Assembly (NCBI GenBank): GCA_964356075.1
Contig: CAYHGC010000001.1
Location: 1 to 33,516, forward strand
Origin: an uncultured archaeon
GTDB lineage: Archaea; Iainarchaeota; Iainarchaeia; Iainarchaeales; VGJJ01
DNA length: 33,516 nt
Direction of reading: 5' to 3'
In this document: positions 3,146 to 18,326 of the stretch, piece by piece
Layout: every line of letters begins with the position of its first letter
Numbering within the stretch: position 1 is the stretch's first letter
The notes under the pieces: model-generated
What the model saw: the letters and a program-made list of their open reading frames with translations, nothing else
The model's database searches: none
What the model was told of the DNA's origin: nothing
Position numbers and translations under genes: made by a program

Positions 3146-3484
3146 CTATTTTACAAACAGCACACATTCGCCGCAAGAGTTTCCTGCACAAGTTACAGGC
3201 GCTTGATGGTAGCGGGTGTGGAACTCCTTGATGTGTTGAATGAGCTCACTCAATTCTTTTCCTTTTGATGTAAGATAGTAGGTTTCCTCTTTCTTTTCAA
3301 TGAGCACCCCTTCTTCCATTTCTTTGAGACGTTGCGATAGTTGTTTGGGCGTAATTTTTATTTTTCGTGTGAGATGATTGAATCCCTCATATTTACCAAA
3401 ATAAAATTCTTCCAGAATGGGAACAAAATCCTTTTTTCCCAGCAAGTGAAAAGTATGCAAAGGAGCACATTCAGTAGGAGGCAT
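3146..3484 (-). CDS. HxlR-like winged-helix regulator with C-terminal Cys cluster
   Basis: ...LLGKKDFVPILEEFYFGKYEGFNHLTRKIKITPKQLSQRLKEMEEGVLIEK... resembles the HxlR/MarR wHTH family. The C-terminus carries CAGNSCGEC. Divergent from the cupredoxin operon. Confidence 0.6.
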   Translation of the reverse strand: MPPTECAPLHTFHLLGKKDFVPILEEFYFGKYEGFNHLTRKIKITPKQLSQRLKEMEEGVLIEKKEETYYLTSKGKELSELIQHIKEFHTRYHQAPVTCAGNSCGECVLFVK

Positions 3485-3558
3485 AGTATCTTTTTGGGTA
3501 CTTTTCCTTTTTTAACTCCATTATTCATACCCTTGCATACGAAGAAGGTGTGGGATAT

Positions 3559-5007
3559 ATGACAAAAAAGAATGAACGCACAGATTGGAAAATTCTTTTA
3601 GGCGTCGGAGTCCTTCTCCTTATCGTGGGAATGGGATCCTATTTTCTCTTTCTTTCAAACCCAAGCAAAATCATTGAGATTCGGGACGATGCCCCCTGGT
3701 ATTTTCCAGCCGTGTTGGAAATCGAACCCGGAACAACCGTAAAATGGACCACGAACCTTCCAGCAGTACATCCGGTTATGGCATTGGAAGGGCCGGAAGA
3801 GATTCATTCCGGACACTTCACGAAGGAATTTGTCCATACTTTTTCCAAGCCGGGCATTTACGTATACATTTGCCCCATCCATCCTTACATGAAAGGAGTC
3901 ATTGGAGTGGGAATGAAAATTCCTCCTGAAAAAATTCCCATTTGGAATAATTGGCCACTCGAAGCCAAAAGTCCACCCGGAGAATTACCCCTTATTTCCG
4001 GTGAAGGAAAAATCTGGATGGACGCCCAATTTGAAAAGGTTCCTGGGAACAAAGAACCGGGCGCCATTTACGTGATCAATGCCGAAACATGGGAAATTGA
4101 AAAAATTATCACCGATTCGCGATTAAACAATCCTCATAATATCATTCCATTCGGAGACAAAATGCTTCAAACCAATTGGTTTGACCAATATTTGAGCGTG
4201 ATTGATCAAGCAACCGGAAAAATAGTCAATCACGTTCTGGTGGGAGAGAGCCCTGCGCACGTGATGCCGGGAATGAATGGCGAAAAAATCTATGTGACAT
4301 TACAAGGGGATGACGGGATTGCTATTTTGGATAAGCAGTTCAATCTCCTCGAAAAGGTTCGCGCGCCCAAAGGGCCTCACGGTCACATGATGAGTGGGGA
4401 TGGGAAACGCATGGCCGTTGCATCAACCGAAAAAGCGGAAATCAGCGTCTGGGATCTGGAAACAAATAAAATTATTTTTAGCGCCCCGCTATATGTTGAT
4501 GATTCTCACACCGTCATGGATGAAGAAGGAAAAGAACACACTCATACACTGCCTCTCATGGCCGGAATGACACTGGATGGAAAATTCGCATATGCAGCCA
4601 CGAGTAATGAGGGAATATTCTACGTGTTTGACGTGGACAACAAAACGCTTGTAAAATCATTCGAAATCGGAAAAGGACCTATTCAAGTCGGATTAAGTCC
4701 GGATGGAAAATACGTGGTGGTTCCACTAACCTATGATGCCGCCGCTGCCATTATTTCGACTGAAACATGGGAGATAGTACAAAAAGTTCCTAATGTCGGA
4801 TTGGGAGCACACGGGGTTGCATTTGGACCCCAAAAAGGAGGAGGATATTACGCCTATATCACCAATAAGTTCACGACCTGGGTCACGGTTATAAACATGG
4901 AAAATTTTCAAGTTGCAGGATACATCCCCCTCCCTCCTACTGCGTGGGGTGGACAAGGAATCGCGGTTGTACATGAAGGAGTGATGATGAATGACCAAAA
5001 CCAATAA
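3559..5007 (+). CDS. Membrane-anchored type-1 cupredoxin domain fused to a YVTN-type beta-propeller
   Basis: TM anchor, then a cupredoxin domain with HPVM... and YVYICPIHPYMKGVIGV (Cys-x2-His-x2-Met, a blue-copper ligand pattern). About 7 repeats of the 40-residue YVTN propeller type follow (IYVINAET, IYVTLQGDDGIAILD, ISVWD, FYVFD, YVVVPL, YAYITNK...VTVIN). ATG 3559 is preferred over tracked GTG 3550. Confidence 0.75.
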   Translation: MTKKNERTDWKILLGVGVLLLIVGMGSYFLFLSNPSKIIEIRDDAPWYFPAVLEIEPGTTVKWTTNLPAVHPVMALEGPEEIHSGHFTKEFVHTFSKPGIYVYICPIHPYMKGVIGVGMKIPPEKIPIWNNWPLEAKSPPGELPLISGEGKIWMDAQFEKVPGNKEPGAIYVINAETWEIEKIITDSRLNNPHNIIPFGDKMLQTNWFDQYLSVIDQATGKIVNHVLVGESPAHVMPGMNGEKIYVTLQGDDGIAILDKQFNLLEKVRAPKGPHGHMMSGDGKRMAVASTEKAEISVWDLETNKIIFSAPLYVDDSHTVMDEEGKEHTHTLPLMAGMTLDGKFAYAATSNEGIFYVFDVDNKTLVKSFEIGKGPIQVGLSPDGKYVVVPLTYDAAAAIISTETWEIVQKVPNVGLGAHGVAFGPQKGGGYYAYITNKFTTWVTVINMENFQVAGYIPLPPTAWGGQGIAVVHEGVMMNDQNQ

Positions 5008-5596
5008 CGGAGGTTCCTCGGCCACCAAATGGATCATCCCGATCCTCATCCTTCTTGGAATTGGAATCATCGGATATTCCTTGTTTGTCACATTCAACTC
5101 CGGGGCTTCCACCGAAGGAATCGTCACATGTCCTACCCCCGATACATGTTTTTGGAGCTCGCACTTTCATATTTATGCGCCTATTGAAATATGTGGAGAA
5201 GAATTCCCGTTACCGGTTGAACTCGGTTCCCTCCAAAAATCCCACACGCACGAAGAGAAAAACATTATTCACTGGCACGACAAACTTCCGTATGACAATG
5301 TCGCCAAAAAAATAATTGATACCACCGACCTTACACTCGGATCGTTTTATGATCAGGTTAACATTCCCTTCTCCTCTACTCAACTCGATGGAAAAACGAA
5401 CGGGGACACGTGTTCGGATGGGACGGTTGGTACGTGGAAAATGCTCGTAAATGGAAAACCCAATACGGAGTATCGTAAATATGAAATGCACGATCGGGAT
5501 GTCATATGGACGGTGTTTGATTCCCGCACGATGGATGAAGTGACGCAAGCATGGAGCCAAACGCCCATTCGTTTTCCCACTCTAGGAAACGGGTGA
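4991..5596 (+). CDS. Membrane-anchored His/Cys-rich extracytoplasmic protein (putative metal-binding)
   Basis: TM anchor, then CPTPDTCFWSSHFHIYAPIEICGEEF...KSHTHEEKNIIHWHD. Overlaps the upstream gene by 17 nt, consistent with an operon. Confidence 0.55.
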   Translation: MTKTNNGGSSATKWIIPILILLGIGIIGYSLFVTFNSGASTEGIVTCPTPDTCFWSSHFHIYAPIEICGEEFPLPVELGSLQKSHTHEEKNIIHWHDKLPYDNVAKKIIDTTDLTLGSFYDQVNIPFSSTQLDGKTNGDTCSDGTVGTWKMLVNGKPNTEYRKYEMHDRDVIWTVFDSRTMDEVTQAWSQTPIRFPTLGNG

Positions 5597-5606
5597 ACCC
5601 ATTCCC

Positions 5607-6467
5607 ATGAAAAAAACCATCCTGCTTGGAATGTTCATTATCCTATTACCTGCTGTTTTCGCGCAACAGGATTATTCTAATTTTACTCCCCCCGAATTAT
5701 CTATCCCTATCATCATTGGGTTGGGACTCATTGATTCCATTAACCCTTGTGTCATTGGCGTGCTGATTTTGCTCCTCACCATGCTTCTCAAATCGGGAAA
5801 CAAAAAAGCCATTTTGATTAACGGACTAACCTATACGTTGGGTGTCTACCTTACGTATTTGATTGGGGGATTAACGCTCTTGAGCTTGTTTAACTCCGTG
5901 CGCGACATTGTGGTGATTTCCCAATTGTTCTATTTTGTGATTGGAGCATTTGTCATGATTGCAGGATTCCTTGAAGTCAAGGATTATTTTTGGTACGGAC
6001 GATGGTTTTCGTTGGCGATTCCTCAACAACTCGTTAAACTGGTTGAAAAACAAGCCAAGGGTGCCCATGTCAGTCTTGCTGCGACATTCATGGCCGGAGC
6101 CATTCTCACTCTTGTTGAACTCCCCTGCACCGGTGCCCCCTATTTGGCCGTTCTCACCCTCATGTCGCAATCGGGGTATGGGTATGTGACGGGATTGCCA
6201 TTGCTACTACTCTACAACCTTGTCTTTGTCCTTCCCCTCTTGGCATTGATTTACCTCGCTTACACTGGAATGGGCCTCAAAATGATGGAATCCTGGAGAA
6301 AAGAACACCGTGGAGTCATGCGCCTAGGAATAGGAATCGCACTCCTGTTGATTGGGATATGGATCCTCTCCACCGTTGCGGGGAATCTATTGATTTCGTT
6401 GATGGTGGGAACGATAATCGTTATTCTCCTTATGGCTTTTCTTCAAAAAACGGGAATGGTGAAATAA
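5607..6467 (+). CDS. CcdA/DsbD-family transmembrane thiol:disulfide electron transporter
   Basis: Polytopic membrane protein with the two signature TM cysteines (DSINPCVIGVLILLL and VELPCTGAPYLAVL). Confidence 0.7.
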   Translation: MKKTILLGMFIILLPAVFAQQDYSNFTPPELSIPIIIGLGLIDSINPCVIGVLILLLTMLLKSGNKKAILINGLTYTLGVYLTYLIGGLTLLSLFNSVRDIVVISQLFYFVIGAFVMIAGFLEVKDYFWYGRWFSLAIPQQLVKLVEKQAKGAHVSLAATFMAGAILTLVELPCTGAPYLAVLTLMSQSGYGYVTGLPLLLLYNLVFVLPLLALIYLAYTGMGLKMMESWRKEHRGVMRLGIGIALLLIGIWILSTVAGNLLISLMVGTIIVILLMAFLQKTGMVK

Positions 6468-6468
6468 C

Positions 6469-7023
6469 ATGACCGTGGAACGCGTGGTAAAACGCAACGG
6501 ATCCGTTGAACGTTTTCAATCCTACAAAATAGTCGAGGGGCTTGAGAAATCATACGCGCATGCGCGCGGACGAAAAAAATTAATTGAAAAAATATGGATG
6601 GAAGAAATTGCCCTTCGTGTTCACCGTGTGCGCCCGAAACAACTTTCATCCGACACGATCCGAAAGATCATTGTGGATGATCTCAACACACGAAAAATGA
6701 ATGACATCGCAGACCATTACGACTTTTCTTTTTTACAAGAATCCCCATCTAAAATAAAAAAAGTATTGAAACGCAGTGGAAAAACCGAACTATTTTCCCC
6801 CAAAAAAATATTCAAATCCATCCGAAAAGCATTCTCTATGACGGGTATTACCAGCGAAAGAGAATGCGAGCGGGTCACGAAGATTATTATTCGACGCTTG
6901 GAAAAAATAGTTGGAAACAAACCGCTTCCTGTGGAAGCCATCCGTGAAGTGACGGAAGAAGCCCTAATGGAAACCGGCCACCATGCTGCGGCGCACCGAT
7001 ACATGCTACATCGTTACATGTAA
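6469..7023 (+). CDS. Stand-alone protein with two ATP-cone domains
   Basis: Two copies of the ATP-cone signature (VVKRNGSVERFQSYKIVEGLEKS and KVLKRSGKTELFSPKKIFKSIRKAF). Starts 1 nt after the CcdA stop. Confidence 0.7.
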   Translation: MTVERVVKRNGSVERFQSYKIVEGLEKSYAHARGRKKLIEKIWMEEIALRVHRVRPKQLSSDTIRKIIVDDLNTRKMNDIADHYDFSFLQESPSKIKKVLKRSGKTELFSPKKIFKSIRKAFSMTGITSERECERVTKIIIRRLEKIVGNKPLPVEAIREVTEEALMETGHHAAAHRYMLHRYM

Positions 7024-7069: not shown

Positions 7070-7513
7070 ATGGAAGAAAAGTCATGCAACCCGTATATGG
7101 CCATTCCTCGCATGACCAAAATCTTTCTTCTTTCACTTACTGGATTTTTATTTGCAGGATTTTTGACCTATTCCAAACTTACCACGGGAACGTGTCCTCT
7201 CACGGAAGGATGCCCCTACTTGCTGGGATTGCCCGTCTGCGTGTATGGGCTGGTATTATTTGGAATCATTCTGGCCATGAGCATCCTTCATGATACCCAG
7301 CGGAACAACATGAGCCTATCCTGGATCCGCTGGGTTTCCCTTTTTGGAGTAGCGTTTTCAGGATACTATGCCGTGAATGAGCTCCTATTCCCGAGTTGTT
7401 TCATCGGCCCCTGCACGTACACACTACTTCTTCCGAGTTGTGTGTATGGTTTGGCTATGTATGCACTGATCGCATTTTGGGCTTGGAAAAAAGAAATGAA
7501 AATGACTGAATAA
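7070..7513 (+). CDS. Four-TM Cys-rich membrane protein, VKOR/DsbB-like (tentative)
   Basis: Internally duplicated motif: CPLTEGCPYLLGLPVCVYGLVLFG and CFIGPCTYTLLLPSCVYGLAMYA. The Cys-loop plus G(L/I)P..(V)YG resembles the VKOR N-terminal segment. No classical CxxC was seen. Confidence 0.45.
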   Translation: MEEKSCNPYMAIPRMTKIFLLSLTGFLFAGFLTYSKLTTGTCPLTEGCPYLLGLPVCVYGLVLFGIILAMSILHDTQRNNMSLSWIRWVSLFGVAFSGYYAVNELLFPSCFIGPCTYTLLLPSCVYGLAMYALIAFWAWKKEMKMTE

Positions 7514-7784: not shown

Positions 7785-8081
7785 CTATTCTTCGGTTTTC
7801 ACGAGATGATCTTTGAATAAGTATTTTTTGAGCATGTCTTCAACCTGCGAATCGTTCTTTCGAATCCATTCCAATAACATCGCCGCGTGTTCTTTTTCTT
7901 CTTTGGCATTATGTAAGAGGATTTTTTTCAATTCTTCATTTTTGGTAGCATCTGCGCGTTGGTTATACCAATCAATCGCTTCCAATTCTTCGCGCAGTGA
8001 GTCAATGGCGCGCTTCAAATCAATGGTTTTTTCTGTAAGCTGAGTTCGTTCTTCGTGCAACATCGTGTACCCCATGATCAT
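7785..8081 (-). CDS. Encapsulated-ferritin (EncFtn)-type ferritin-like protein
   Basis: ...RAIDSLREELEAIDWYNQRADATKNEELKKILLHNAKEEKEHAAMLLEWIRKND... closely matches the EncFtn signature as I recall it from Rhodospirillum rubrum (EELEAVDWYDQR...HNRDEEKEHAAMTLEWLRRND). The Glu/ExxH iron ligands are present. Confidence 0.75.
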   Translation of the reverse strand: MIMGYTMLHEERTQLTEKTIDLKRAIDSLREELEAIDWYNQRADATKNEELKKILLHNAKEEKEHAAMLLEWIRKNDSQVEDMLKKYLFKDHLVKTEE

Positions 8082-17252: not shown

Positions 17253-17325
17253 CCCGCCTTAGCATAGTAGCTAATGCGTCCGGCTGTAGACCGGAAGATC
17301 CCCGGTGCAAGTCCGGGAGGCGGGA
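17253..17325 (+). tRNA. tRNA-Tyr (anticodon GUA), archaeal type
   Basis: Manual cloverleaf. Acceptor CCCGCCT/AGGCGGG (C1-G72), D arm GCAT-AGTAGCTA-ATGC, anticodon arm TCCGG-CTGTAGA-CCGGA, 5-nt variable loop AGATC, T arm CCCGG-TGCAAGT-CCGGG, discriminator A. No CCA. Confidence 0.85.
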
Positions 17326-17328
17326 CTA
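17308..17328 (+). repeat. Direct repeat DR1 (attL core) = 3' end of tRNA-Tyr
   Basis: CAAGTCCGGGAGGCGGGACTA is identical over 21 nt to 25437-25457. Its 19-nt core AAGTCCGGGAGGCGGGACT is also found at 26963-26981. Confidence 0.9.
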
Positions 17329-17390
17329 TAACCATTAAATCAGTCCAGGAATATAGTATTCCAAAGGACATTTATCATTCAGCGGAAGGA

Positions 17391-18326
17391 TTGAAGAGAG
17401 CCCTGGTGGCCCTTTCCGCGGTTACAGCCATTAGTGAAGGTGGTAGGGGAGAGATACAACGGTACGTGCGATATTCTCTTGCCCAAGGAATCAAACCCAT
17501 TCGTGTTAGAAAAACAGTTTACATGTTGCGAGACATGTCTATCGTTCTAGGAAAACCATTTTCGGAATGCACTAGAGATGATATTGAAGGATTGATGGTT
17601 GAGATTGGCCAACGCGATTATGCGGAGTGGACAAAAGCCGATTATCGGATAATCCTTAAGCGGTTTTACAAATGGTTACTGGGTAACAATGAGGAATTTC
17701 CTATCCAGGTTAAATGGATTCGGTACCGAGAGCCAAAGAATACCATCTTACCAGAGGAACTACTAACCGAAGAGGAAGTTTTACGAGTAGTCGATAAAAC
17801 AAAATTGATTCGGGATAAAGCATTCATCTATTTACTGTATGAAAGCGGAGCGCGAATCGGTGAAATACTTACACTTTCAATCAAACATGTCACTATTGGA
17901 AATCCAATATCATCCATTTTAGTAAGTGGGAAAACGGGTCAACGAAGAATTCTATTTGTAAAAAGCGCAAGATATCTGAGAGAATGGCTGAGCGAACATC
18001 CGTTTAGAGAACATCCCGAATCCTCTTTGTGGGTTCGTATGGACTCTGCTCGAGTAAGCGGGAAGTGGACAAATCCAGCAGAAAAGGAAATCACCTATAC
18101 AAGTGTGAAGAAGCTTCTTGGGAAAGCGTTTTTGGAAGCCGGGATAAAGAAAAAACACCGATGTCACCTATTCCGCCATTCTAGAGCTACTTTTTTGGCT
18201 CAGCATCTAACCGAAGCGCAGTTGAAACAATTTTTTGGATGGACTCAATCTAGCGATATGGCCGGGAGGTATGTTCACCTAAGCGGGAGGGATTTAGACG
18301 GTGCAATTTTGAGAGTGTATTCATAA
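17391..18326 (+). CDS. Tyrosine recombinase / integrase (XerC/D-like)
   Basis: SAM-like N-terminal domain plus a catalytic domain with ...GARIGEIL..., HLFRHSRATFLAQH (HxxR) and GRYVHLS (catalytic Tyr). The tracked ORF (17274) starts inside the tRNA. There is no ATG after the att core, so the start is probably TTG 17391 or GTG 17406 and remains uncertain. Confidence 0.85.
   Translation: MKRALVALSAVTAISEGGRGEIQRYVRYSLAQGIKPIRVRKTVYMLRDMSIVLGKPFSECTRDDIEGLMVEIGQRDYAEWTKADYRIILKRFYKWLLGNNEEFPIQVKWIRYREPKNTILPEELLTEEEVLRVVDKTKLIRDKAFIYLLYESGARIGEILTLSIKHVTIGNPISSILVSGKTGQRRILFVKSARYLREWLSEHPFREHPESSLWVRMDSARVSGKWTNPAEKEITYTSVKKLLGKAFLEAGIKKKHRCHLFRHSRATFLAQHLTEAQLKQFFGWTQSSDMAGRYVHLSGRDLDGAILRVYS

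Follow-up and report, generated by a model that had tools for sequence, protein, structure and literature searches.

Nitrous oxide reductase (NosZ), one of a small number of enzymes by which a greenhouse gas is controlled, follows a design in which an electron relay is wired to a metal site on the axis of a beta-propeller. NosZ of clades I and II and the clade III enzyme (L-NosZ), which has the lactonase-type propeller that its name implies, are copper proteins of the extracytoplasmic space; each joins a cupredoxin domain for electron entry to a seven-bladed propeller, the innermost strands of which offer histidines to the axial site. Another seven-bladed propeller, thiocyanate dehydrogenase (TcDH), holds a His-ligated multi-copper (trinuclear) site in its central tunnel, and the electrons that it gains by oxidising a small substrate go to a separate c-type cytochrome (PMC9456337). 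The subject of this study is a protein of 482 amino acids that joins a cupredoxin to a propeller and is encoded in a stretch of 33,516 nucleotides (the window) from an uncultured archaeon of the Iainarchaeota (GenBank assembly GCA_964356075.1, contig CAYHGC010000001.1, positions 1 to 33,516).

A first-pass annotation, made from the letters alone, had suggested that the protein could be an uncharacterised extracytoplasmic copper redox enzyme, and offered NosZ as the only well-known precedent. The suggestion holds up as the best hypothesis, given the membrane anchor (a lipobox in some relatives), a complete set of type-1 copper (T1Cu) ligands, invariant histidines in the propeller, redox fusions among the relatives and copper genes nearby. 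The idea of a single precedent was out of date, TcDH and the lactonase-type NosZ having both been described. The best overall explanation, in which I place moderate confidence, is an extracytoplasmic, membrane-tethered copper oxidoreductase with two centres, probably at work in copper stress. That the protein is a two-centre metallo-redox enzyme seems rather probable; that copper itself is the substrate is a tentative proposal, one I would sooner doubt than assert.

Architecture of the Protein

The open reading frame and every motif quoted from it in the first-pass annotation are present in the sequence. The ATG at 3559 is the likely start because AAGGTG lies 8 nt upstream of it; the other possible start is a GTG 9 nt upstream. 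Full-length homologues number 37 (37-84% identity to the protein), and an AlphaFold2 (AF2) model, calculated with 31 homologues as input, has a mean pLDDT of 90.8 and a pTM of 0.87. The model and the alignments divide the protein as follows (TM, transmembrane).

3559..5007, stop codon included, + strand: the whole gene, for a 482-aa membrane-anchored cupredoxin-propeller protein (open reading frame list, Shine-Dalgarno-like site, homologues, AF2)
3586..3651, + strand: TM anchor, residues 10-31, N-in/C-out (AF2/DSSP helix; basic N-terminus MTKKNERTDWK)
3670..3909, + strand: amicyanin/pseudoazurin-like cupredoxin, residues 38-117 (AF2 beta-sandwich; weak NCBIfam matches; PDB matches)
3769-3771, 3871-3873, 3880-3882 and 3889-3891, + strand: T1Cu ligands H71, C105, H108 and M111, respectively (invariant in alignments)
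3910..4008, + strand: Pro/Trp-rich linker, residues 118-150, with conserved P127, W129, W132, P133, P144, G148 and G150 (alignments)
4009..4971, + strand: seven-bladed YVTN/lactonase-type beta-propeller, residues 151-471 (DSSP of the AF2 model, Foldseek, Pfam)

The protein faces outward, into the extracytoplasmic space, as judged by its N-terminal anchor and by the lipobox (LLAGC) that takes the place of the anchor in the relatives of subfamily 2. The linker, with a pLDDT of about 90-97, probably packs on the propeller. Beyond generic repeats, no model in Pfam or NCBIfam covers the protein.

The cupredoxin had been recognised in the first-pass annotation as a TM-anchored domain with a Cys-x2-His-x2-Met site, and the model agrees, placing a helix at residues 10-31 ahead of a beta-sandwich. 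The site lies in the motif YICPIHPYM, which provides C105, H108 and M111 with the spacing of amicyanin, and H71 is to be added as the fourth ligand. Conservation was judged in two sets of homologues, one of 31 close sequences (38-84% identity) and one of 24-25 more distant sequences (27-58%), and all four ligands are invariant in 31 of 31 of the former and 24 of 24 of the latter. Below threshold, NCBIfam models of amicyanin, pseudoazurin and halocyanin match the domain. In the PDB the sequence comes closest to three-domain Cu nitrite reductases (9cck and 6hbe), in their tethered cupredoxins, and next to amicyanins and pseudoazurins, to which the family profile matches with E-values down to 6e-12. 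Both the fold and the His...Cys-x(n)-His-x(n)-Met pattern of an amicyanin/pseudoazurin-type T1 copper protein are there, so that the domain carries a complete T1Cu ligand set and is predicted to bind copper.

The resemblance to the three-domain nitrite reductases is close at the metal site, where the motif YVYIC(S/P)IHPYMKG hardly differs. The additional T1Cu domain of those enzymes serves them as an internal electron donor, the role proposed here for the cupredoxin. The domain is tethered at the C-terminus there and at the N-terminus here, and the enzyme core is a trimeric two-cupredoxin NirK with type-2 copper and no propeller.

A Conserved Histidine/Glutamine Site in the Propeller

DSSP divides the modelled propeller into seven four-stranded blades, with a C-terminal strand (465-471) that closes the ring by pairing with the first three strands (151-184). 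The top Foldseek match is the YVTN propeller 1l0q (E = 7e-22, TM 0.66), which the family profile also finds (4.6e-38); the rest of the top 50 are generic seven-bladed propellers, and the matches include lactonases, hydrazine synthase beta, NirN, NirF, BtuG and AztD. The TIGR02276 repeat of NCBIfam, for which the cut-off is 27.85 bits, scores 39.4, and the Pfam families YNCE and Cytochrom_D1 pass narrowly above threshold. Blades and repeat together make this a YVTN/lactonase-type propeller, as the first-pass annotation had supposed from the letters when it spoke of roughly seven blades.

The innermost strands begin at residues 192, 232, 273, 332, about 374, 417 and 465. Residue 1-2 of this strand is a histidine in blades 1, 2, 3 and 6 (H193, H234, H274 and H418). 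These and related positions are listed below.

4135..4137, + strand: H193 (NNPHN), start of the innermost strand of blade 1; family-invariant
4258..4260, + strand: H234 (SPAHV), innermost strand of blade 2; family-invariant
4378..4386, + strand: H274-G275-H276 (GPHGH), innermost strand of blade 3; H274 invariant, H276 a His in 17 of 25 diverse members
4498..4548, + strand: inserted Asp/Glu/His/Met-rich loop or hairpin, residues 314-330, DDSHTVMDEEGKEHTHT, just before the innermost strand of blade 4
4684..4686, + strand: Q376 (GPIQV), equivalent position in blade 5; family-invariant
4810..4812, + strand: H418 (GAHGV), innermost strand of blade 6; family-invariant
4867..4869, + strand: K437 (NKF); invariant in all cupredoxin-fused members, Met in stand-alone propellers
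4954..4956, + strand: Q466 (GGQGI), innermost strand of blade 7; Q or N across the family

In every beta-propeller the innermost strand begins on the top face, at the mouth of the central channel, and it is there that propeller enzymes usually place their active sites; the metals and cofactors of NosZ, TcDH and cd1 nitrite reductase sit at this entrance. Because the four invariant histidines are at innermost-strand starts, standard propeller topology would bring them together at the top-face entrance of the channel.

Two observations indicate that the histidines are more than chance occupants of these positions. In a HMMER alignment to 1l0q, H193, H234, H274/H276 and H418 fall on the x or G of the P-x-G that is typical of the repeat, where 1l0q itself has K, G, Q, L and similar residues, never His. 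(Annotated "YncE family" lipoproteins of ca. 355 aa were considered as generic controls and dropped, as they proved to have the same site; the alignment to 1l0q was used for that reason.) Histidine occupies 5 of the 21 residues in PxG positions, as against 10 of the 325 residues of the propeller (hypergeometric P = 1.4e-4). Conservation is by far the more telling argument: H193, H234, H274, H418 and Q376 are invariant over a range of 27-84% identity, and they belong, with the T1Cu ligands and K437, to a set of about 25 invariant columns.

The pattern is not quite the one that had been proposed, which was a histidine in five blades at the position of PxG. Four of the five motifs (NNPHNI, SPAHVM, GPHGHM and GAHGVA) are where they were said to be. 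The fifth, HTHTLP, contributes H327 and H329 from the inserted hairpin, a region of lower confidence (pLDDT about 72) that is specific to the clade; at its PxG position, blade 4 has P332-L333-M334. The actual pattern is four histidines and two glutamines, Q376 and Q466 having been missed.

The inserted loop, which also holds H317, is confined to subfamily 1. Subfamily 2 has instead an insertion, EGEHGHG, before blade 3, and over the family as a whole His-rich loops have been inserted at three distinct positions of the top face in three lineages. In the clade whose members are linked to oxidases, the residue before H418 is a cysteine (GCHG).

The conserved residues might have nothing to do with metal. 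Histidines, glutamine and asparagine could be linked by hydrogen bonds into a network, or could hold an organic ligand or a small, cofactor-bearing subunit served by the cupredoxin, and the propeller would then be a metal-free scaffold or ligand-binding module like YncE, the corrinoid-binding BtuG or the heavy chain of methylamine dehydrogenase. The last is a seven-bladed propeller that lacks a cofactor and works with amicyanin, a blue-copper protein of the type seen in the cupredoxin domain and with the same C-x2-H-x2-M spacing. In that system propeller and amicyanin are two proteins rather than one, the propeller is devoid of a metal site, and tryptophan tryptophylquinone, the cofactor, is carried by a small subunit. 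The fold matches to the tetrapyrrole-binding propellers BtuG, NirF and NirN also speak for a bound organic ligand, although BtuG matches no better than unrelated propellers do. Histidines invariant in four blades, joined by further histidines in particular lineages and by a cysteine next to H418, are the typical signature of metal ligands, and I consider a metal-free propeller very unlikely.

Comparison with NosZ and TcDH

The protein is not a nitrous oxide reductase. Its only cysteine is C105, so that it has no CuA site, the binuclear centre for which NosZ supplies two cysteines (C-x3-C) in a C-terminal cupredoxin; the cupredoxin here is N-terminal and of the T1Cu type, and the inverted domain order had been correctly noted in the first-pass annotation. 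The L-NosZ model (NF052460) gives the protein its second-best NCBIfam score, yet this score amounts to 61.8 bits in two partial stretches, against a cut-off of 700, and all nine other family members scanned score as well, at 18-79 bits. No canonical NosZ model is among the NCBIfam matches at E <= 0.01, and neither the top 60 PDB profile matches nor the top 50 Foldseek matches include NosZ. Nor were nos accessory genes (nosDFYL/nosR) found among the open reading frames scanned in the window, although clade III NosZ is reported to lack the canonical set as well. The analogy to NosZ that had been drawn is a loose one of design.

A related reading is that the protein, without being NosZ, is a small-molecule reductase in the manner of NosZ, NirK or an oxidase. 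Thiol electrons delivered through the neighbouring gene products discussed below, a CcdA-type transporter and a Cys/His-rich protein, would enter the blue copper, pass to copper in the propeller, and reduce N2O, NO, nitrite, O2 or peroxide outside the cell. A cupredoxin joined to a His-lined propeller is the logic of NosZ and L-NosZ, and the L-NosZ model does score, if far below its cut-off. Seven histidines may be counted near the axis in the clade of the window protein (193, 234, 274, 276, 327, 329 and 418), the number that ligate CuZ. Just four of these are invariant in the family, together with one glutamine, and the single cysteine, the reversed domain order and the low score weigh against this reading as they do against NosZ proper. 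I judge it unlikely; further evidence on both sides comes from the distribution of the family.

TcDH shares with the protein the propeller and, in some relatives of the protein, an association with cytochrome c, there by fusion. It has no cupredoxin domain. The family profile matches TcDH (8q9x/8yu5) weakly (E = 4e-5, blades 3-6 only), no better than it matches cd1 nitrite reductase, and TcDH is not among the top 50 Foldseek matches. No thiocyanate or sulfur genes are found near the protein.

Family and Distribution

By its motifs, the protein belongs to a large unnamed family, defined here by a cupredoxin and a propeller with the site H193/H234/H274/H418 plus Q376 (His4-Gln). The motifs are C-x2-H-[PV]-[YF]-M in the cupredoxin and then, in the propeller, N-N-P-H-N, x-A-H, P-H-x, P-I-Q, G-x-H-G and GGYYAY-x3-K. 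All are in the window protein, and the core ones are in 80 of 80 genome loci. A literature search found no paper on this family, including under CAD84475 and the locus tags of Nitrosomonas europaea (the tags inferred by accession arithmetic).

The ca. 37 full-length homologues come from bacteria of the Candidate Phyla Radiation (CPR; Doudnabacteria, Saccharibacteria CPR2 and Peribacteria) and from archaea (Woesearchaeota and metagenome-assembled genomes, MAGs, of Methanosarcinales). Longer relatives, of about 600-1190 aa, keep the same cupredoxin and propeller motifs. A scan of one genome per species brought the number of relatives to 520, of which the best 80 were used for the breakdown by lineage and for the statistics on loci. 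Twenty-five of these are from methanotroph lineages, 23 from ammonia-oxidising archaea of the Nitrososphaerales, 11 from ammonia-oxidising bacteria (N. europaea included) and 4 from Nitrospira, 63 of 80 in all; Methylomirabilota, Methanoperedens and Chloroflexi are among the lineages with single matches.

The distribution, with the seven countable histidines, keeps a small-molecule enzyme akin to NosZ in play as a rival, since the ammonia oxidisers, Nitrospira and the methanotrophs, like Methylomirabilota and Methanoperedens, all handle hydroxylamine, NO or N2O; in nitrifiers and methanotrophs the same site might even run in the other direction and oxidise hydroxylamine or NO. What accompanies the protein in these organisms argues otherwise. 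The forms in ammonia-oxidising bacteria and archaea are fused to an N-terminal multicopper oxidase (MCO) part with an HCH motif, and in 48 loci (nitrifiers and methanotrophs) a two-domain MCO-like gene (2dMCO; product ca. 340 aa) lies directly upstream on the same strand. O2-reducing MCO partners would favour the oxidation of a substrate in this, the largest clade, and the neighbouring genes are those of copper homeostasis rather than of nitrogen oxides. The window protein itself is not an MCO, for which HxH...HCH motifs in Cu-oxidase domains are the mark; it has neither a Cu-oxidase domain nor an HCH motif.

The adjacent two-domain oxidases were considered as possible NirK proteins and rejected as such: NCBIfam places two scanned neighbours with CopA/CueO, and the fused domain has the HCH motif. 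The N. europaea protein CAD84475.1, annotated solely as "multicopper oxidase type 1", consists of an MCO with HCH motif, a cupredoxin and the His4 propeller in 912-927 aa (locus L039, 4396-7179). Immediately upstream (3380-4399) is a gene for a 339-aa oxidase-like protein that has HxH motifs and lacks both HCH and a T1Cu cysteine. Together, the two proteins may make up a composite trinuclear site.

Other relatives carry a fused cytochrome c (P0045, P0064, P0083 and P0086). Still others lack a redox domain: the ca. 355-aa "YncE family" lipoproteins of Bacillaceae keep H193, H234, H274, Q376 and H418 in 28 of 28 cases, with neither cupredoxin nor K437. One of them is found in Mesobacillus jeotgali (locus L012, 8001-11400), a culturable organism, where a stand-alone propeller lipoprotein of 353 aa with the His4-Gln site and an HGHGSHGDE loop adjoins a small protein with a NIR_SIR domain and a 508-aa three-domain MCO, with a PadR regulator upstream.

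Such lipoproteins, keeping the site without a redox domain and next to an MCO, bring to mind a non-catalytic metal-binding protein or metallochaperone, comparable to AztD or CopC. The propeller histidines and loops would pick up copper, or else zinc or nickel, on the outside of the cell and exchange it with MCOs or with the Cys/His-rich protein, the blue-copper domain being an additional site for binding or sensing instead of an electron relay. AztD, a zinc chaperone, is a His-liganded metal-binding propeller with a His-rich flexible segment and is among the fold matches; the flexible His-rich loops of the present family resemble those of metal-capture proteins, and the loci are copper loci. 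The match to AztD is weak, however (TM 0.40/0.49, rank 40); AztD has no redox domain, and its family model does not match. A complete and invariant T1Cu set is the hallmark of electron transfer, not of trafficking, and repeated fusion to cytochrome c or MCO would be hard to explain for a chaperone. I therefore regard this as quite unlikely.

Partners in the Operon

The gene is followed on the same strand by four others.

4991..5596, + strand: 201-aa TM-anchored, Cys/His-rich partner, its start overlapping the stop of the cupredoxin-propeller gene by 17 nt
5607..6467, + strand: CcdA/DsbD_TM-type thiol-electron transporter with cysteines in INPC and LPCTG (Pfam DsbD_TM, SfLAP), 10 nt after the partner gene
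6469..7023, + strand: ATP-cone protein (Pfam ATP-cone, 84 bits), 1 nt after the CcdA gene
7070..7513, + strand: polytopic Cys-rich membrane protein, tentatively VKOR-like (Pfam VKOR E = 0.0033, below threshold); possibly the last gene of the operon

To judge from the overlap, the 201-aa protein is co-transcribed with the cupredoxin-propeller protein. Scans for promoters and terminators around the operon gave no excess of sites over shuffled sequence. The Cys/His complement of the 201-aa partner comprises C47, C53, H58, H60, C68, the motif HTHEEKN-IHWHD and C141, and 15 homologues carry the invariant set, which includes the four cysteines and this motif. Some of the homologues have an extra N-terminal YtkA-like domain. 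The partner matches no family in Pfam or NCBIfam, and its AF2 model (pLDDT 85.5) finds no significant fold match in the PDB; neither family models nor folds connect it with the known copper chaperones Sco, PCuAC, CopC and CopZ. The best Foldseek hit (E about 0.01) is the beta domain of transcobalamin, which, with a weak similarity to DUF4430, amounts to a beta-grasp-like resemblance. A corrinoid-binding system, with a BtuG-like propeller and a transcobalamin-like partner, was considered on this account and dropped, the similarity being of that general kind.

The partner also bears on the notion of a metal-free propeller, since a Cys-rich protein could in principle be the cofactor subunit, and its weak match is to a cobalamin-binding domain. 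This match is no better than those to unrelated beta-grasp proteins. Moreover, the Cys/His protein is confined to a few loci of CPR/DPANN type among those sampled, whereas the His4 site is universal.

Within those loci the association is persistent. The cupredoxin-propeller gene, the Cys/His gene and the CcdA gene are adjacent in four lineages; the latter two flank orthologues in Doudnabacteria and Saccharibacteria, and the Cys/His gene does so in Woesearchaeota as well. One metagenome contig (P0085, 2507 bp) has a YtkA-like domain, the Cys/His protein, CcdA/DsbD_TM and the cupredoxin of this family in a single frame, cut off by the end of the contig. By the Rosetta-stone argument, this fusion suggests that the Cys/His protein, CcdA and the cupredoxin-propeller family work together. 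A link to CcdA would also give a NosZ-like reductase, were it one, a source of electrons in organisms without respiratory chains. Partners of these kinds, CcdA with the Cys/His protein here and MCO or cytochrome c elsewhere, are another respect in which the family differs from NosZ.

In three Doudnabacteria loci (L001-L003), DsbD_TM and ATP-cone form a single protein of 391 aa (L001, 7408-8583). A nucleotide-sensing ATP-cone domain on an exporter of thiol electrons is unusual.

Copper Context

Upstream of the operon, on the opposite strand, lie a regulator and a group of likely copper genes.

3146..3484, - strand: divergent HxlR-family regulator with a C-terminal C-x5-C-x2-C tail (Pfam HxlR)
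406-1332, - strand: membrane protein with HMA domain and Met/Gly-rich part (Pfam)
1361-1600, - strand: HMA chaperone (Pfam)
1555-1980, - strand: Cupredoxin_1 protein (Pfam)

Homologues of the HxlR protein stand beside relatives of the cupredoxin-propeller gene at three other loci (L017, 1054-1407; L047, 1229-1831; L062, 2455-2865), from Nitrososphaera and another archaeal MAG, which, with the cysteines of its tail, suggests a conserved redox- or metal-responsive regulator. Elsewhere the neighbours differ in identity and agree in theme: CsoR, DUF305 and a copper P-type ATPase in Doudnabacteria; 2dMCO, DsbD and a copper ATPase in Methylohalobius; and 2dMCO, CopC-CopD and plastocyanin beside an 807-aa form (L011).

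This setting of copper ATPases, CsoR, CopC-CopD, HMA chaperones and plastocyanin-like genes is that of the copper-resistance proteins CueO, CopA/PcoA with CopC/PcoC, and CopI, the last a blue-copper protein needed for copper resistance, and a direct MCO partner, found with most relatives of the protein, is a further point in common. The copper-resistance proteins have another fold, without a propeller, and none of their family models matches the protein.

Two genes of the region deserve mention in their own right. The product of 406-1332 (308 aa) has an HMA domain (CDAC) at its N-terminus, and its polytopic membrane portion, in which Gly and Met abound (as in MTGMIIGMISGFMSGALIGATNGMFVGSLTGMAVGMG), matches no Pfam family. 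The protein may transport metal (copper) and represent a type of transporter not yet described. Between the HMA/cupredoxin genes and the operon, a gene on the + strand (2024-2551) encodes a 175-aa protein with N-terminal membrane helices and a C-terminal winged helix (DUF7343, just below threshold), which may be a membrane-bound regulator.

A Proposed Two-Centre Copper Oxidoreductase

I favour a two-centre oxidoreductase because three things occur together: an invariant blue-copper site, a multi-His site in the propeller and repeated fusion or adjacency to electron-transfer proteins. The first centre would be the type-1 copper of the amicyanin-like domain, acting as a built-in electron relay. 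The second would be at the top face of the propeller, at the mouth of the channel, formed by H193, H234, H274 and H418 with Q376 and, in the clade of the window protein, probably also by H276 and the flexible loop 314-330. It would most likely bind copper, possibly more than one ion. Electrons would move between this centre and the blue copper, and from there to a partner that differs by lineage: a multicopper oxidase in nitrifiers and methanotrophs, a fused cytochrome c in some bacteria and, in the organism of the window, the Cys/His membrane protein with CcdA, which would bring reducing equivalents from cytoplasmic thiols to the outside.

As to physiology, a role in the redox processing of copper is favoured because copper loci recur in unrelated lineages and because the top face bears His-rich loops; these suggest that copper ions may be trafficked to the site, whether as cofactor or as substrate. 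In copper stress the protein might interconvert Cu(I) and Cu(II) or hand copper over, doing with a different fold a job like that of CueO or CopA-CopC.

Several considerations weigh against this account. The convergence of the histidine side chains is deduced from strand topology, and the metal, in any member of the family, is something I infer. Four histidines and a glutamine are atypical for a site with Cu(I) as substrate, where Met or Cys is usual. Genes for copper trafficking accompany ordinary cuproenzymes as well, and their presence is thus no proof of copper as the substrate; a nitrogen-oxide or hydroxylamine substrate would account equally well for the enrichment in nitrifiers and methanotrophs. 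Finally, CcdA implies a reductive flow of electrons outward, opposite to the oxidative flow expected with an O2-reducing MCO, and the partners may therefore play different roles. Either the site could run in different directions in different clades, or the role of CcdA and the Cys/His protein could lie in maturation, much as TlpA and Sco act in the assembly of CuA.

The broadest interpretation is a speculative one with little probability: that the window protein represents, in its smallest form, a new class of propeller copper oxidoreductases, with copper held at the axis by His4-Gln and a tethered blue copper, in which the oxidase-fused form carries out a nitrogen-oxide or hydroxylamine step that has yet to be assigned, or serves copper acquisition, and the CPR/DPANN form is driven by thiol electrons exported through CcdA. 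The oxidase-fused form is found, among the best genome matches, in many ammonia-oxidising bacteria, soil ammonia-oxidising archaea, comammox/Nitrospira and methanotrophs. If the interpretation were true, that form would take part in nitrogen-oxide or hydroxylamine chemistry or in the acquisition of copper for copper monooxygenases, and the CPR/DPANN form would be an extracytoplasmic redox enzyme powered without a respiratory chain. Some enzymatic steps of nitrification still have no assigned protein, and the copper supply of nitrifiers and methanotrophs is poorly understood. A copper protein conserved in these organisms is a concrete candidate, which can be tested in cultured strains such as N. 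europaea. For the version in the window, the link to CcdA and the one fusion suggest how a redox enzyme beyond the membrane could be powered, or matured, in organisms with small genomes and no respiratory chain. The design would be that of NosZ carried out with a different relay (T1Cu), a different set of ligands and different partners, in a family for which there is no curated model.

Other Features of the Window

Just downstream of the operon is a gene (7785-8081, - strand) of the encapsulated-ferritin-like type (EncFtn); no gene for an encapsulin shell was seen among the open reading frames scanned in the window. Farther on, a phage-type integrase gene (17274-18326) begins inside a tRNA-Tyr gene (17253-17326), and from the integrase to about 25400 the open reading frames have no family matches and a lower GC content (0.37-0.42). 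The region from tRNA-Tyr and integrase to about 25400 looks like an integrated mobile element. The tRNA-Tyr, of 74 nt and without a long variable arm, hints at an archaeal host, being of the archaeal rather than the bacterial type.

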